DNA of 64,000 nt from contig CAKZSU010000005.1 in the NCBI GenBank assembly GCA_937921305.1, positions 74,740 through 138,739 of the forward strand. Reading direction: 5' to 3'. A program made the position numbers and the translations under genes. Source of the DNA: an uncultured Patescibacteria group bacterium (GTDB lineage: Bacteria; Patescibacteriota; Microgenomatia; UBA10105; UBA927). Position 1 is the first letter of the stretch. Every line of letters begins with the position of its first letter. A model generated the notes under the pieces. It saw only the letters and a program-made list of their open reading frames with translations, did no database searches and had not been told where the DNA came from. Of this stretch, positions 4,280-63,416 are shown piece after piece.

Positions 4280-4834
4280 ATGGCTGGGCATTCAAAATGG
4301 TCAAAAGTGAAACATCAGAAGTCTGTGACGGATCAAGTCAAGGCAAAATTGTTCACGAAAGCGTCGAGAGCAATTACGGTCGCGGTTCGCGAGGGTGGAG
4401 GGGTAACTGATCCAAATCAAAACGCAAAACTTCGATTGGCGATCGAGCAGGCGAGAGCGGTGAATATGCCCAAAGAAAATATAGAACGAGCGATAGCGAG
4501 GGCAAGAGGAGCGCAAGAACAACAATTAGAATCGCTTGTGTATGAGGCGTACGGACCGGAAGGCGTTGCGATGATTATCACCGCTGTGACCGATAATCGT
4601 CAGCGGACTGTCTCAGCGTTAAAAAACATTCTTAGCCATCATGGCGGGGCGCTTGTTGCTCCCGGAGGCGTGATGTTTTTATTTCAGCGGATCGTGAATA
4701 ATGCGGGAATAAATTATGAACCGTTGCATACGGTATCATTATCAGATCAAGCTCAAGAGCAATTTGATCGCCTCATCGACGCGTTAGACGATCTTGACGA
4801 TGTCCAAGATATTTTCTCTAACGCCGCGTCATGA
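4280..4834 (+). CDS. YebC/PmpR-family DNA-binding regulator (short, 184 aa)
   Basis: MAGHSKWSKVKHQK...NAKLRLAIEQARAVNMPKENIERAI and the acidic C-terminus DALDDLDDVQDIFSNA are YebC hallmarks. Shorter than the usual ~240 aa. Confidence 0.8.
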   Translation: MAGHSKWSKVKHQKSVTDQVKAKLFTKASRAITVAVREGGGVTDPNQNAKLRLAIEQARAVNMPKENIERAIARARGAQEQQLESLVYEAYGPEGVAMIITAVTDNRQRTVSALKNILSHHGGALVAPGGVMFLFQRIVNNAGINYEPLHTVSLSDQAQEQFDRLIDALDDLDDVQDIFSNAAS

Positions 4835-5685: not shown

Positions 5686-5943
5686 ATAGATTTGAGGTAG
5701 GAGAGAGGACAAAGTGATATATTCTGATACAGTTATATTATAGGCCTATAAAAATGTGGATAAGTTTTCACGATATCCTATAAAAGTTTTCACGAATTGC
5801 ATACATAATCCTCATTTGATGTAGGCAGTGTTTGTATTTGATAGTAAAGAATGAAAGAAACGATGATAGAGAGATGTGTGTTGTCATGTTTGCTCGTTTC
5901 AGTATTTAGAAACACTTAGGAAAGGTGCTCTTTTCTTTAAAGT

Positions 5944-5977
5944 TCTTCAGATGTTTAACTACGTTCAGGATAACAAT
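5944..5977. repeat. copy of the dispersed CTTCAG..TTCAGGATAACA hairpin repeat family
   Basis: ttcttcagatgtttaactacgttcaggataaca; same core as copies at 6.2-6.5 kb, 8.2 kb, 13.7 kb, 16.3 kb, 36.3 kb and 62.9 kb. Confidence 0.5.
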
Positions 5978-6197
5978 GTGTACTTGCATACTAAAAAGAA
6001 GTTGCCAAGCATTGTCAAATGGTTTTGTTTTCTGCTAGGTTTACGAAATGATTGGTGGATTGTTTTAAAAACTAGCTTCAAAAGTTTATTTTTGGATTGT
6101 TAAATCAATCTAAAACTAATTTTTTGTGAAGGTGGAGAAATATATAACATAAAAAAACCGAACAAGTGTTTTTTTATGTTATTTTTCTCTTTGTCGC

Positions 6198-6507
6198 CCT
6201 GAACTCGTTCGAAGATCTGAAAGCTTGCGAAGAAATCAATACCACATCATTGCAAAATGTTGAAATAATTTCAGTATAAAATAAGGGATGTATTGCACTC
6301 TTTGACCCTTCTTCTTAATTCTGAACTCTCAATTCAGGATCCGAAGACTTGCGAAGAAACCAATACCATATCATTGCAATGAACTACATTCAGCATGATA
6401 AGAGCGTATCGTCCTGAACATGGTTCAGAATCTGGGGAGTCTCGAGGAAGGGAACGCTCTTTTTATTAGATACTGAAACACGTTCGGCATGACATAAAAT
6501 GTGTATC
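6198..6507. repeat. cluster of at least five CTGAA-loop-TTCAG hairpin repeats (followed by GATCC/CATGATA/CATGACA), interleaved with a ~45-bp direct repeat
   Basis: cctgaactcgttcgaagatctgaaag (6198-6223); ctgaactctcaattcaggatcc (6321-6342); acattcagcatgataagagcg (6386-6406); cctgaacatggttcagaatc (6413-6432); ctgaaacacgttcggcatgacataa (6483-6507). Confidence 0.6.
6214..6381. repeat. two copies of a ~45-bp direct repeat (6214-6259 and 6338-6381, ~90% identical)
   Basis: gatctgaaagcttgcgaagaaatcaataccacatcattgcaaaatg versus gatccgaagacttgcgaagaaaccaataccatatcattgcaatg. Confidence 0.7.
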
Positions 6508-6946
6508 ACAAGTTAGGAAGGGAAACGTACTCCATAATGTCGCACAATAATACTTTTACGACGTTTAAGATGAAAAAAGCGAGAGTGGACGCTTTCGTAT
6601 GATTCTTGTTGCCATTGTTTTTTTTGCCGTTTTTCCACATTTCTGGTTTTGCTTCTTGTATGGAGATTCCGGGGTAAATAATACCTTCTCTTGCGTGTTC
6701 ATCCCATATTTTGTGGCAATCAGCGCATAATCCGACGCCGTTCACGCGTTCATCAGATCCACCCATTCCTTGCGGAATAATGTGATGAATTTGCGTTTTG
6801 CATTTTTTCCCACATGCAGCACAACATCCATTCTGTTCTTGACGTATTTGATCTTTTATTTCACGAGAAAAGGCAAGGCGGGATAATTCCCATACAGTAA
6901 GAATCGTTATTCCCAAGGCAATTGGCTTTTTTAGTATTTCCTTCAT
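6506..6946 (-). CDS. HNH endonuclease domain protein
   Basis: CCAACGKKCKTQIHHIIPQGMGGSDERVNGVGLCADCH is a canonical HNH motif (Cys pairs plus HH...N...H). N-terminal hydrophobic segment. The 3' tail runs through the att-like motif at 6545-6563, so the true C-terminus is uncertain. Confidence 0.7.
   Translation of the reverse strand: MKEILKKPIALGITILTVWELSRLAFSREIKDQIRQEQNGCCAACGKKCKTQIHHIIPQGMGGSDERVNGVGLCADCHKIWDEHAREGIIYPGISIQEAKPEMWKNGKKNNGNKNHTKASTLAFFILNVVKVLLCDIMEYVSLPNL
6545..6563. repeat. left copy of the 16-bp direct repeat ATAATGTCGCACAATA (att/dif-like core)
   Basis: cATAATGTCGCACAATAATAc; identical 16-mer at 8371-8386; degenerate copies at 8451-8467, 62923-62937 and nt 7-20. Confidence 0.6.
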
Positions 6947-7290
6947 TTATTTTTCATTTGCGATTTTCGAATCGCAAAGACTGTAAGATAGTCTTCTTCG
7001 TGATCGGGGTGATATCGATGTGGGTCAAGACGATGCATTTCCATTTCAAGTCTATGTTTTGTTAATTCTGCGTATTTTCTGCATTGGAAGCATCCGCAAG
7101 TTTTCGCTCTATGTTTAGCTTCTTCACATTCCTTCCAAAGGTCTAAAAAAACTTTTTCTTCCACATCTTGAACGAATCTATTTGCTTGTTCAAGAATTGA
7201 TTGATCAATTTCTTTTGACATAGATAGATGGTTTGAATATTGAGAAGAACTATATATCGCAATATGCTGAAATGCAAGAGCTAAATTCAT
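6943..7290 (-). CDS. small hypothetical Cys/His-rich protein, apparently co-transcribed with the HNH gene
   Basis: ATGA overlap with the HNH ORF. CGCFQC motif and His-rich C-terminal region (HRLEMEMHRLDPHRYHPDHEED). No recognised family. Confidence 0.45.
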   Translation of the reverse strand: MNLALAFQHIAIYSSSQYSNHLSMSKEIDQSILEQANRFVQDVEEKVFLDLWKECEEAKHRAKTCGCFQCRKYAELTKHRLEMEMHRLDPHRYHPDHEEDYLTVFAIRKSQMKNK

Positions 7291-7296
7291 GAAGAG

Positions 7297-8191
7297 TGAA
7301 GTTGCAAGGAATCGATCATGCGCTTTGCAATAGTGTAATTTTCGGCATGTCTGCCATTTGGCTCAACAAGGATATAGACATCATTTCGATCTTTAAACAT
7401 TCTGAGCAACTCTTTCATTTCCTGTCTATTGGGGACAGCTTGATTCGTTTGACACAGTGGATTATCAAGATGATCATGAAAATCTGTACCATTATATGGC
7501 GGAATAATGTATCCAAGATTAAGAATCTTCGTCTGATGAAAGAGTTTTTTTGTTATCTGGACGACTGTTGACCATACAAGCGAGCGTTGAGTTGTCCGGA
7601 TTGTACACGCGGTGTGACCGAAGTCGTTTGCAACGGAGAATCCTTGTTGGTATTTTCGAGATTAAAAATATTGAATGGATTGTCTCGTTTATTCGGGCTA
7701 TACCAGTCATTTGTATCTCGCGATGGGATCGTTTCGATGGCAAGAATAATATTTCGCTCGTTGGCATATTCCGTGAGAATCGTGAGATTTTCAAGAAATA
7801 TCTCTTGGGCTTTTTCTTCGGGGATTGGTTCTCCTGCTGGAACGAATCGCTGTTCGTCAAGGTAAATTTTCACTGGGATACGGGTGCTTGGGTGAAATAC
7901 GACATACTGAAAGCCGTGAATGTATGCGGTATCAATCGTTTCTTTGAGTTGCGCCATTGATGGTTCAACGATAGCGTTGTTTGGAAGCGCAATGTTCGTC
8001 CATGTATGATCTGGAAGATGTCCCCAAAAATGTAAGCCAACCTTCATGTTCCGTCGTTTTAGTTCTTGAAAAAGATTGTTATATTGATCTTTTCTTAAAA
8101 TGTTGAACCATATTTCGGCGAATGGCGGGTTTGCTTTTGCAAGATCGTCAAAACTGTCTTTTTGCGGTCCAACTTTAATTCCAAGAATCAT
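7297..8191 (-). pseudogene. xylose-isomerase-like TIM-barrel (sugar phosphate isomerase/epimerase family) gene, interrupted by a frameshift at ~7645-7660
   Basis: ORF 7553-8191 carries family-like motifs (ILGIKVGP, VVFHPS, LAIETIP, NLEN) and then ends in junk-like sequence. The adjacent frame (7661-7297) is open and continues with ANDFGHTAC..DVYILVEPNGRHAENYTIAKRMIDSL. Adding 1 nt in the A-run at ~7651-7656 joins both into one ~300-aa protein. Confidence 0.5.
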
Positions 8192-8240
8192 AGAATGGTT
8201 TGTTTATTATAGCTTATTGGAATGATTGCTTGTTTGCTTG

Positions 8241-8300
8241 TTATTCAGACACGCTCAGGATGACACGTTGTTGTCACGCTGAATTCATTTCAGGATATAG
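8241..8300. repeat. two copies of the TCAG..CTCAGGATGACA / CTGAA..TTCAGGATA hairpin repeat
   Basis: ttattcagacacgctcaggatgacacg and gctgaattcatttcaggatatag. Confidence 0.55.
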
Positions 8301-8364
8301 AATCGGTTGAAAAGATTTTGTTTATCCGTAATTCTCCAGATATGGAAGAACCATCTTTTTAGTT

Positions 8365-8392
8365 TTTATAATAATGTCGCACAATATTATTC
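8365..8392. other. candidate dif/att-like site: 27-28 bp imperfect palindrome with ~11-bp AT-rich arms around a CGCAC core, containing the right copy of the ATAATGTCGCACAATA repeat
   Basis: tttATAATAATGTCGCACAATATTATtc lies 110 bp upstream of the xerC-like start. Its reverse complement matches itself at 21 of 27 positions. It also contains a perfect TATAAT. Confidence 0.45.
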
Positions 8393-8450
8393 TTCTCTAT
8401 CTATGATTTTTTCTTTTAGTTATATATCGTCGAAAACGATCATACTCTTC

Positions 8451-8467
8451 TTTAATGTCGCACATTC
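8451..8467. promoter_or_regulatory. third, degenerate copy of the TAATGTCGCACA motif, 35 bp upstream of the xerC-like start (possible operator/promoter element)
   Basis: tttAATGTCGCACAttc, followed by TTGATT and TGATAAAT promoter-like hexamers. Confidence 0.35.
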
Positions 8468-8501
8468 TTGATTTTGCTCGTCATGTGTGTCATCATGATA
8501 A

Positions 8502-9449
8502 ATGCATATGACCACATCTTCCCTTACGCTTGATGATCTTGTCCGTCAATTTTTAGAACATCTTGAGATTGAACGAAATGTTTCTCGATTAACGATTCGG
8601 AACTACGCCCATTATCTTCAACGATTTTTGACATTTCTTGGAGATCATCCCTCTATTGATGACATTACCTTTGAAAAAGTTCGGTTGTATCGTCTGTATT
8701 TGTCTCGATATGTTGACGAACACGGGTGCTCGTTGAAGCGGGTGACACAGAATTATCATCTTATCGCGCTTCGTTCGTTTTTGAAGTACTTGATGAAGCG
8801 AGATGTTCCATCGCTTGCTCCAGAAAAAATAGAACTTGCGAAGGCGGAAAGTCGAAGTCTTTTGTACTTGGATCGAGAGCAAATAGAGCGTTTGCTTGCG
8901 TCGCCGAGTATTAGCACAGAGGAAGGGTTACGAGATAAAGCGATTCTTGAGACATTATTTTCCACTGGTCTTCGCGTTTCGGAGTTGGTGTCGTTAAATC
9001 GAGATCACATTAATGTTGAACGAAAAGAATTTGGCGTAATTGGAAAAGGAAGAAAACCTCGCGTTGTGTTCCTTTCTGATCGCGCCGCGGAGTGGATCCA
9101 GCGATATCTTGCAAGCAGAACCGATGAGACGATTCCGTTGTTTATACGATATAGCGGTCCATTGCCGAAAGAACGCGATCCGAAGGGAGAGTCTCTCCGT
9201 CTATCCGCGCGAAGCGTCCAGCGGATTGTCGAGAAATATGTGAAAAAAGCGAAAGTCTCAAAAAAAATTACCCCCCATGGACTTCGTCACAGTTTCGCGA
9301 CAGATTTGCTTTCCGCCGGCGCAGATCTTCGGTCGATTCAGGAAATGCTTGGACATAAAAATGTTTCAACAACGCAGATTTATACTCACATTACGAATAC
9401 ACAGCTTCGCGAAGTGCATAAAAAGTTTCATGAACGACAGACTGCTTAA
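8502..9449 (+). CDS. xerC: tyrosine site-specific recombinase, XerC/XerD family
   Basis: C-terminal catalytic region HGLRHSFATDLLSAGADLRSIQEMLGHKNVSTTQIYTH (R..H..R..Y) and N-terminal core-binding domain; 315 aa. Confidence 0.85.
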   Translation: MHMTTSSLTLDDLVRQFLEHLEIERNVSRLTIRNYAHYLQRFLTFLGDHPSIDDITFEKVRLYRLYLSRYVDEHGCSLKRVTQNYHLIALRSFLKYLMKRDVPSLAPEKIELAKAESRSLLYLDREQIERLLASPSISTEEGLRDKAILETLFSTGLRVSELVSLNRDHINVERKEFGVIGKGRKPRVVFLSDRAAEWIQRYLASRTDETIPLFIRYSGPLPKERDPKGESLRLSARSVQRIVEKYVKKAKVSKKITPHGLRHSFATDLLSAGADLRSIQEMLGHKNVSTTQIYTHITNTQLREVHKKFHERQTA

Positions 9450-16237: not shown

Positions 16238-16290
16238 TTATGACATTCTAAAGGAGAAAATGTGTGTTTGTCTAGTGTCGGATAGGTGTA

Positions 16291-16450
16291 TGTCATCCTG
16301 AACTCTCTCTGTCATCCTGAATTTGGTTCAGGATCTTGGGTATTAGATGATGAGCTGTAAAGTGGCAAATATTTTTAGAATCTCTGCTAGATGCTGAAAC
16401 GAGTTCAGCATGATAATGGATGAATCCTAAGATGCGTCCGGTATGACAAT
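16291..16450. repeat. cluster of hairpin repeats (TGTCATCCTGAA x2, TCCTGAA-TTTGG-TTCAGGA, GCTGAAACGAGTTCAGCATGATA, GGTATGACA) between gyrB and pilC
   Basis: tgtcatcctgaactctctctgtcatcctgaatttggttcaggatcttggg. The 24-mer tgctgaaacgagttcagcatgata is identical to 62869-62892. Confidence 0.6.
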
Positions 16451-62868: not shown

Positions 62869-62894
62869 TCTTTGTCGTGCTGAAACGAGTTCAG
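62869..62894. repeat. copy of the hairpin repeat, identical 24-mer to 16393-16416
   Basis: tgctgaaacgagttcagcatgatacg. Confidence 0.6.
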
Positions 62895-63026
62895 CATGAT
62901 ACGAAATGAGGTTTTAGAATGATAAAAGAATGTCGTACAAGTAACTATGCATAAAATACTCATGATAATAGATAAATGTCTGGACAATTCTAAAAAAAGC
63001 TCGTAACATACAATTAAAGAAATCAT

Positions 63027-63416
63027 ATGCCAAGCAAAAATTATACCCTCTTTTTCATTCTTAGCGTAGGATTTGTGTTGATCACGATGGCGTTTATTAC
63101 GATTTTGGGCCAAACAACTAGCAAAGATGGTGAAGCGACAGATATTCGCGCGAAAGCGACAGTTGCGAATTCCTTAAAACTTGTTGGGAATGTTATATCG
63201 ATTGATCCATCTACTAGAACATTGGTTGTTAGTGATGTCAAATTTGAAAGTAAAAAAAATGAAACGCAAACAATGGGAACATGGACGGTAACGATAGCGG
63301 GAGATGTCAATATGACAACGATTACACCAGGAAGACAGGTGCTTATCAGCGCTGACGCTTCTACATTTAATATTACAAATAATACGATGACCGCTCTTGC
63401 CGTCTCGCCCTTGTAA
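63027..63416 (+). CDS. membrane-anchored/secreted hypothetical protein
   Basis: N-terminal TM/signal (YTLFFILSVGFVLITMAFITILG), then a beta-rich 100-aa domain. Confidence 0.45.
   Translation: MPSKNYTLFFILSVGFVLITMAFITILGQTTSKDGEATDIRAKATVANSLKLVGNVISIDPSTRTLVVSDVKFESKKNETQTMGTWTVTIAGDVNMTTITPGRQVLISADASTFNITNNTMTALAVSPL

Follow-up and report, generated by a model that had tools for sequence, protein, structure and literature searches.

We analyzed a 64,000-nt window of contig CAKZSU010000005.1 (assembly GCA_937921305.1, positions 74,740 to 138,739 of the forward strand), which belongs to an uncultured Patescibacteria group bacterium of the Microgenomates lineage. Near its left end, a gene for a DUF5656 protein is followed by a long gap, three minus-strand genes and, on the plus strand, the gene of a Xer-family tyrosine recombinase (xer for the gene, Xer for the protein). 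Between DUF5656 and xer lies a discrete, two-armed element of 28 bp that resembles a dif site. It occurs in a single copy per locus and is strictly linked to a catalytically intact Xer-family gene, and isolated copies of one of its arms (half-sites) are found at the xer promoter. The features are located in Table 1. A first-pass annotation of the same DNA had noticed a dif-like site here and had read a pair of 16-bp repeats as the ends of an inserted islet; we re-examined both proposals.

The 28-bp site has the 11-6-11 layout of dif-type sites, with two inverted arms around a 6-bp center. The arms match each other in inverted orientation at 8 of 11 positions in the window and at 9-10 of 11 in relatives, whereas the dif sites of Escherichia coli, Bacillus subtilis and Frankia reach only 4-6 of 11. 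An extended-motif search returned about 25 Microgenomates genomes with an almost identical sequence of 26-28 nt, located on the xer strand at 0.3-3.8 kb upstream of the gene, with the consensus ATGTCGCACAA-TAATAC-TTTT[A/G]CGACGT. A weight matrix built from 22 sites gave the window site (at 6537) a score of 46.9 out of a possible 47.9 and found matches scoring 23-48 in about 30 Microgenomates genome loci; shuffled 64-kb sequences reached at most 8.4. Where the site was detected, the matrix gave exactly one full-site match per Microgenomates locus on the forward strand, and the weaker reverse-strand match at the same position arises because the arms are near-palindromic. In non-coding DNA from 22 genomes, high information content is restricted to the 28 bp, the central six bases included, and falls off sharply outside.

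The variants of the site are informative about how it may be read. Arm changes come in pairs, with cTTCG...CGAAg in L027 and L033 and aTTTCG...CGAAAt in L060, and such mirror-symmetric changes are expected if one protein reads both arms. Shapirobacteria variants carry the center TGTATC. Read in the 11-6-11 register, E. coli dif (GGTGCGCATAA-TGTATA-TTATGTTAAAT; reference dif sequences from PMC3025954) agrees with the Shapirobacteria and L060 variants at 18 of 28 positions (permutation p ≤ 1e-4), and the window site, in reverse orientation, matches B. subtilis dif at 16 of 28 (p = 0.003) and E. coli dif at 14 of 28 (p = 0.02), all of these being suggestive comparisons of short sequences.

The linkage to xer was assessed in genomes and in public metagenomes, which we scanned for the exact 24-nt core of the site. 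At least 120 metagenome contigs contained it, each in exactly one copy. Among the matches listed, 63 contigs extend at least 2 kb to the left of the site, and 62 of them have DUF5656 on that side; of the 44 that extend at least 3 kb to the right, 41 have xer there. In 71 of the 72 contigs that show xer, the gene is downstream of the site and on its strand, with a median distance of 1.1 kb. In all Microgenomates genome loci with a detected site (about 30), the site is upstream of xer and on the xer strand; the distance ranges from 0.25 to 5.5 kb, often with genes between. None of about 145 loci (up to 21 kb each) has a second full site, and the only further copies are left-arm half-sites a short way upstream of xer. 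The source organism has one copy in about 75 kb, and all contexts with enough flank represent the same locus. Relatives share the gene order YebC - DUF5656 - variable segment - xer - ... - SIMPL - FolD - GyrA, and the site occupies a convergent gap between the 3′ end of DUF5656 and the minus-strand genes on its right, where no promoter is needed. The earlier proposal, in which a dif-like site and one Xer-type recombinase gene form a genetically linked pair like XerS/difSL and XerH/difH, is supported. In a single contig of the 72, L166 (Ga0233420_10003955), the site is inverted and DUF5656, the TIM-barrel gene and xer have their usual orientation.

The recombinase itself has a Pfam Phage_integrase domain (E = 3.5e-44) and a SAM-like N-terminal domain. 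Its catalytic R-K-H-R-H-Y set is intact when aligned with XerD 1A0P (GLRVSE, GKGRK, HGLRHS, LGHKN, QIYTH); this is also its best PDB match, followed by the Pyrococcus XerA-type protein 4A8E. The NCBIfam models for XerD (251.3 bits, cut-off 329.6) and XerC (248.9 bits, cut-off 335.15) both leave it below the equivalog cut-off, and the XerA model gives 219.8 bits against a cut-off of 220. With 127 bits on the XerS model (cut-off 267 bits) and 47 bits to XerH (PDB 5JJV), it is a member of neither of these families and stands closer to XerC, XerD and XerA. The best 120 of 8000 scored matches are about 70% identical to it, and those that are named come from Patescibacteria, mostly Gottesmanbacteria; by these comparisons, the Xer-type recombinase appears highly conserved in Patescibacteria. 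As first reported, it is the single tyrosine recombinase found in the window, though not every ORF (open reading frame) was scanned.

Table 1. Features of the dif-like site, the half-sites and the genes up to xer (window coordinates)
Feature	Position	Strand	Basis or remark
28-bp dif-like core site	6537..6564	+	matrix score, conservation, arm symmetry
Left arm, ATGTCGCACAA	6537..6547	+	
Center, TAATAC	6548..6553	+	
Right arm, TTTTACGACGT	6554..6564	+	
HNH endonuclease ORF	6506..6946	-	Pfam HNH, E 3e-7; phage HNH PHROGs, E 3.6e-11
Small Cys/His-rich ORF, 115 aa	6943..7290	-	adjoins HNH gene, also in L087
AP_endonuc_2 (xylose-isomerase-like TIM barrel) pseudogene	7299..8191	-	one frameshift near 7646-7650
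Upstream xer-proximal half-site, ATGTCGCACAATA	8374..8386	+	left arm and start of center, no right arm
Promoter-proximal half-site, ATGTCGCACATTC	8455..8467	+	probable Xer operator
Xer-family tyrosine recombinase, 315 aa	8502..9449	+	alternative start at 8508 gives 313 aa

Based on the layout, conservation and linkage of the site, we propose with moderate confidence that it is the core recombination site of the Xer encoded 1.9 kb downstream, and that the two form a single-recombinase Xer/dif module. Each of the two almost symmetric 11-bp arms would be bound by an Xer monomer, with strand exchange across the 6-bp center TAATAC. As a single-copy site at a core locus can recombine only with its sister copy or with an incoming circle, chromosome-dimer resolution would be its most likely role. 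We found no paper in the searchable literature that combines Patescibacteria, a tyrosine recombinase and dif, and the Microgenomates module seems to be undescribed so far.

Within the window alone, the repeat from which the site was first noticed makes a modest impression. The 16-mer ATAATGTCGCACAATA has two perfect matches on the plus strand, at 6534-6549 and 8371-8386; their likeness extends over about 24 nt (21 of 24 identical) and is lost beyond. A third copy, TTAATGTCGCACATTC, has three mismatches and lies at 8452-8467, 34 nt ahead of the xer ATG (8502). Three matches with at most three mismatches compare with 0.88 expected, a number that 3 of 100 shuffles equal. This leaves some room for a chance repeat or an AT-rich, low-complexity likeness without function. 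The comparative data, however, make the significance overwhelming: exact conservation at one syntenic position in more than 140 independent genomes or contigs already refutes chance, to which we assign a practically negligible probability.

The re-examination also shifted the focus from the right copy of the repeat to the left one. The first-pass annotation had correctly seen two perfect copies and a degenerate one upstream of xer, with some errors of position: it had placed the left copy at 6546-6561, off by 12 nt, and the right copy 110 bp from xer, where the true gap from the end of the copy to the ATG is 115 nt. It had also described a palindrome at the right copy with the arms of 11 bp and center of 5-6 bp that mark a dif site, from a string in which an AC had been duplicated. 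The palindrome is really ATAATAATGT-CGC-ACAATATTAT (8368-8390), 23 bp with 10-nt arms (9 of 10 complementary) and a 3-nt center. We rejected it as a dif core, for it has this short center and no right arm, and relatives do not keep it; the dif-like site is instead the left copy, with its 11-6-11 layout. The supposed weaker copies at nt 7-20 (within the lgt coding sequence) and 62923-62937 are matches to a 9-mer core with one mismatch, which occur at chance level (11 found, 13.9 expected). At 62930-62945, upstream of an ORF without a family match (63027-63416), the intergenic sequence AATGTCGTACAAGT looks similar to a site arm; scored on the minus strand with the right-arm matrix, it reaches 16.8, and shuffle maxima have a mean of 14.5 and a largest value of 21.2.

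The copies near xer are half-sites. The left-arm matrix reaches its maximum in the window (22.3) at 6537 and 8374 only, and the 8374 copy scores below 8 as a full site. The 8455 copy has a left-arm score of 12.2, inside the shuffle range, and L003 carries its ortholog (ATGTCGCACATTGTCTTGATTT). Directly after the 8455 copy come a weak -35-like TTGATT (8468-8473), 17 nt and CATCAT (8491-8496). For a wider view, we compiled 84 xer loci across Microgenomates, Parcubacteria and Saccharibacteria; the 80 genome loci examined each stem from a different assembly. Within 270 nt upstream of xer, there are 48 exact instances of the motif GTCG[C/T]ACA (2.18 per kb). The remaining 1.26 Mb contain it at 0.051 per kb, with 0.061 per kb expected by chance, and the enrichment upstream of xer is thus 43-fold. 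The conserved upstream block is about 14 nt long and asymmetric, RT-GTCGYACA-AT(A)T.

We considered what this motif might be other than a binding site for Xer. A generic repeat or promoter element was rejected, since the density away from xer is that of the background and the motif belongs to xer. About 15 of the 41 half-sites listed from metagenomes adjoin TTGACA or TTGACT, and YACAAT stands 6-9 nt ahead of the xer ATG in several lineages. A role as the -10 box of a leaderless xer mRNA was also rejected, as the motif is inverted in about a quarter of the loci and elsewhere lies upstream of the -35 box. The motif thus overlaps xer promoters but does not correspond to a single fixed element of them. 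Half-sites about 3.7 kb downstream of xer in L009, L010, L013 and L014 proved to be a coding coincidence in folD, where they encode a conserved peptide. Given the 43-fold enrichment across Patescibacteria, autoregulation of xer is likely: Xer probably binds the half-sites at its own promoter (8374-8386 and 8455-8467 in the window) and would thereby limit its own transcription. The idea that the copy just upstream of xer is autoregulatory, already raised in the first pass, is plausible.

As an alternative, the 28-mer and half-sites together could be purely regulatory palindromes bound by Xer or another protein, with no recombination. The half-sites in or beside xer promoter elements across the phylum agree with this, as does the position of the full site away from the replication terminus (see below). 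We nevertheless judge it unlikely. The full site lies 0.25-5.5 kb from xer with unrelated genes between, in a convergent 3′-end gap without a gene to control. Its 11-6-11 layout, conserved asymmetric center and in-register likeness to dif are features of a recombination core, and the background frequency of the motif away from xer leaves no detectable regulon.

In one group, the xer-proximal site is itself two-armed. About 30-190 nt ahead of xer, L009-L016 and L038 (the Gottesmanbacteria clade) have ATGTCGCACAT-CATGGA-TTGTAGCGACGT, whose right arm is longer by one base, a feature reminiscent of difSL with its asymmetric right arm. This site and the full one, about 1.1 kb apart, point the same way and enclose a gene for a 232-aa 2′-5′ RNA-ligase-like protein.

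The segment between the site and xer contains, as first described, an HNH ORF, a small Cys/His ORF and a frameshifted TIM-barrel gene. The Cys/His ORF had no significant match in Pfam, NCBIfam or PHROGs, with sub-threshold Pfam matches only. In the window lineage only, the last 20 or so HNH codons cross the 28-bp site. The single HNH homologue found (P0122, 79% identity) is in L087, where the order is site, HNH, Cys/His ORF and the 3′ part of the TIM-barrel gene; since the HNH ORF there stops about 110 bp before the site, the overlap in the window is incidental. Searches by tblastn with the TIM-barrel orthologues of L004, L006, L021 and L026 placed residues 1-181 and 189-304 in two different frames, and an identical truncated gene call of 212 aa is present in two independent assemblies. 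The same four relatives have intact orthologues (303-307 aa) in the site-xer interval, which makes the TIM-barrel gene an old neighbor of xer and not cargo. The only lineage-specific genes of the segment are those for the HNH and Cys/His proteins.

Other lineages fill the same slot differently. It holds no gene in L019, L022, L024 and the Shapirobacteria, the 2′-5′ RNA-ligase-like gene in the Gottesmanbacteria clade, and elsewhere the TIM-barrel gene, a trehalase gene or genes for GluRS and a peptidase. Mobile-type content is also found, with an IS200-type Y1 transposase in L028 and a second tyrosine recombinase of 338 aa in L006. In L134 (Ga0070741_10047756), where the left flank measures 209 nt, phage-like genes adjoin the 28-bp site over 5 kb or more: a DNA-repair exonuclease (phrog_7339, E = 1e-26), a MazG-like protein, DUF1599/phrog_1485, a PLD-like protein and an HNH protein. 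The block could be either a prophage inserted at the chromosomal site or part of a phage that carries the site. Upstream of the locus, the YebC/TACO1 gene of the window (4280-4834) encodes 184 aa, compared with about 239 aa in L004-L006; its Pfam C-terminal match is partial, and the gene may be truncated.

This variability raises an explanation in which the 28-bp site is mainly an attB for a prophage or for a mobile element that uses Xer to integrate (IMEX), served by the host Xer or by an integrase of the element; the HNH and Cys/His genes would be a remnant, and the right repeats decayed hybrid sites. It accommodates the site-to-xer content that varies from 0 to at least 6 kb between genomes, the transposase, the second recombinase and the phage-like block in L134, and the match of the window HNH to phage HNH families. 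We consider it improbable as the main function. In no locus is cargo bounded by another full or hybrid two-arm site, and the right copies retain a left arm instead of a right one, contrary to what integration would yield: the observed order, L-c-R followed by L-c′-junk (L and R, arms; c, center), does not result from integration at a site. Most intervening genes are ordinary chromosomal ones (TIM barrel, trehalase, 2′-5′ RNA-ligase-like, GluRS). The loci without an intervening gene of at least 80 aa (L019, L022, L024) still carry the full site and xer-proximal half-sites, and the repeat pair is therefore a standing feature of the locus, not the footprint of an insertion.

No attP-like copy emerged from IMG/VR, the INPHARED phages or the PLSDB plasmids. 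BLAST with the site found nothing in the latter two collections, and three pattern scans for a viral attP gave one partial match (L208), which has no left arm and was attributed to chance. IMG/VR also held no relatives of the L134 phage-like genes, the exonuclease included. Like IMEXs (CTX-phi, VGJ-phi, TLC-phi, the gonococcal island) and Acinetobacter pdif modules, the locus has variable and sometimes mobile DNA beside a Xer site. The Microgenomates cargo, in contrast, is not flanked by two Xer sites, and the second repeat is a half-site that is present without cargo.

The first-pass proposal that the repeats are the attachment or IMEX ends of an islet is hence not upheld, and neither is its expectation that relatives without the segment would retain a single motif, as those without the HNH and Cys/His genes keep the full site plus half-sites. 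Judging from this comparison of sequences, recombination between the repeats was not what brought in the HNH and Cys/His genes. These genes would instead represent a small lineage-specific insertion between the site and its old TIM-barrel neighbor, which later decayed. Use of the site as an attB is compatible with an Xer/dif core, as a secondary use and not a replacement.

The site might also act as RNA, as a hairpin, a terminator or part of an unannotated non-coding RNA in the long gap after DUF5656. Its arms can form a stem of 6-7 bp, the right-arm A/G difference would turn C-G into U-G on the minus strand, and the site is at the 3′ ends of converging genes. However, the folding energy is no better than that of shuffles (z = -0.1 to -0.8), no U-tract follows the stem, the 'loop' is conserved as strongly as the stem, the same arm stands alone at the xer promoter, and Rfam gave no match even at a permissive threshold. 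We therefore hold this explanation to be very improbable. The gap between DUF5656 and the site is 0.4-0.9 kb long and without ORFs in many genomes. In the window, it contains a 42-nt direct repeat (6214-6255 and 6338-6379, 88% identity). Hairpin-like sequences of the form ctgaa-N-ttcag(c/g)atga are intergenic at 5960-6500, 8250-8300, 16290-16415 and 62875-62900; their total is not above that of shuffles, though copies cluster between genes.

Some observations weigh against the interpretation of the element as an Xer/dif core site. Classical dif, difSL and archaeal dif sites lie in the terminus region. Here, GC skew is positive in every 2-kb step of the window and in a further 8.5 kb leftward on the 565-kb contig of the same organism, so that positive skew spans -15 kb to +57 kb around the site. 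Because gene orientation flips near the site, we regressed per-gene skew on gene strand and side, and the strand-corrected replication component was +0.12 to the left and +0.07 to the right. The sign of this component is equal on both sides in 21 of 25 site-bearing relatives. With positive skew throughout, the terminus could lie only more than 57 kb to the right, and the site is not at a shift-point. The first-pass annotation had expected a true dif at the terminus and GC-skew minimum and had counted a shift-point elsewhere, which is what we found, as a refutation. In addition, the Microgenomates matrix detected no full site in Parcubacteria and Saccharibacteria xer loci, only half-sites. Classical dif sites cluster at the GC-skew shift-point (PMC3025954). 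A position off the terminus speaks against placing the site in the classical dif class, but not against a dif-like way of working.

Other features of this region were noted in the same context. A non-coding block at 5700-5800, just past the DUF5656 stop (5685), has 72-89% identity over 25-197 nt in at least 10 relatives. Within it, AAGTTTTCACGA occurs twice, and TGTGGATAA (5754-5762) is a perfect DnaA box. No GC-skew switch and no Rfam match were found for this block. A replication origin, suggested by the DnaA box and the nearby gyrB and gyrA genes, was rejected, as there is no skew switch within -15 kb or +57 kb. In the Shapirobacteria-like L032, L033, L034 and L054, GC skew is unusually high in the 10 kb to the left of xer, at 0.32-0.46, and still 0.11-0.23 to the right.

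Among the known Xer systems, the candidate module is similar to XerS/difSL, XerH/difH and archaeal XerA/dif. In XerS/difSL, recombinase gene and site make up one module, genetically linked and with the site upstream (PMC5357621, PMC1914069), and linkage of dif to the recombinase gene has been proposed as a possible hallmark of single-recombinase Xer systems (PMC5357621). The Microgenomates locus resembles it in having one recombinase, a gene-linked upstream site and imperfect inverted arms of the kind read by one protein. In contrast, difSL has 31 bp with an 11-bp center, compared with 28 bp and 6 bp here, XerS has 356 aa against the 315 aa of the window Xer, and difSL is at the terminus, which the Microgenomates site is not; here, moreover, the site lies 0.25-5.5 kb from the gene, often with genes between. 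XerH/difH likewise has one recombinase and a site near its gene (PMC5357621), but its protein is very distant, and the difH arms, AGTTATGAAAA and AAAAGTTTGA, are unrelated to those of the site.

Archaeal XerA/dif combines one recombinase with a 28-bp site of classical layout, and the window Xer scores at the threshold of the XerA model. XerA is reported to be FtsK-independent (PMC5357621), which would fit a site away from the terminus. The Microgenomates lineage is bacterial, however, and archaeal dif is reported at the terminus and is not generally linked to xerA. With classical XerC/XerD-dif, the shared features are the 11-6-11 layout, in-register identity of up to 18 of 28, the TGTATC center of the Shapirobacteria variant (TGTATA in E. 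coli) and the near-equal XerC and XerD scores. The differences are the arms, symmetric at 8-10 of 11 positions against 4-6 of 11, and the location, which is gene-linked and not at the skew shift-point. The near symmetry of the arms speaks for one protein rather than two.

Patescibacteria, or the candidate phyla radiation (CPR), make up a large share of bacterial diversity and are almost entirely uncultivated, with a chromosome biology inferred from gene lists. A defined 28-bp target for a conserved CPR Xer would be a biochemical handle, as protein and site can both be synthesized. It is possible, though doubtful, that Microgenomates and perhaps all Patescibacteria use a Xer system with an off-terminus, xer-adjacent dif, independence from FtsK and the FtsK-orienting polar sequences (KOPS), autoregulation through half-sites and an occasional role, hinted at by L134, as a landing pad for phage-like DNA; if true, this would be a fourth single-recombinase Xer system beside the three known. 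If the off-terminus position holds in complete genomes, it would challenge the rule that dimer-resolution sites lie at the end of replication. In practical terms, the 28-bp site sharply marks a single chromosomal locus in assemblies of Microgenomates; it is also a candidate site at which genetic tools might integrate, and CPR prophages could be sought there.

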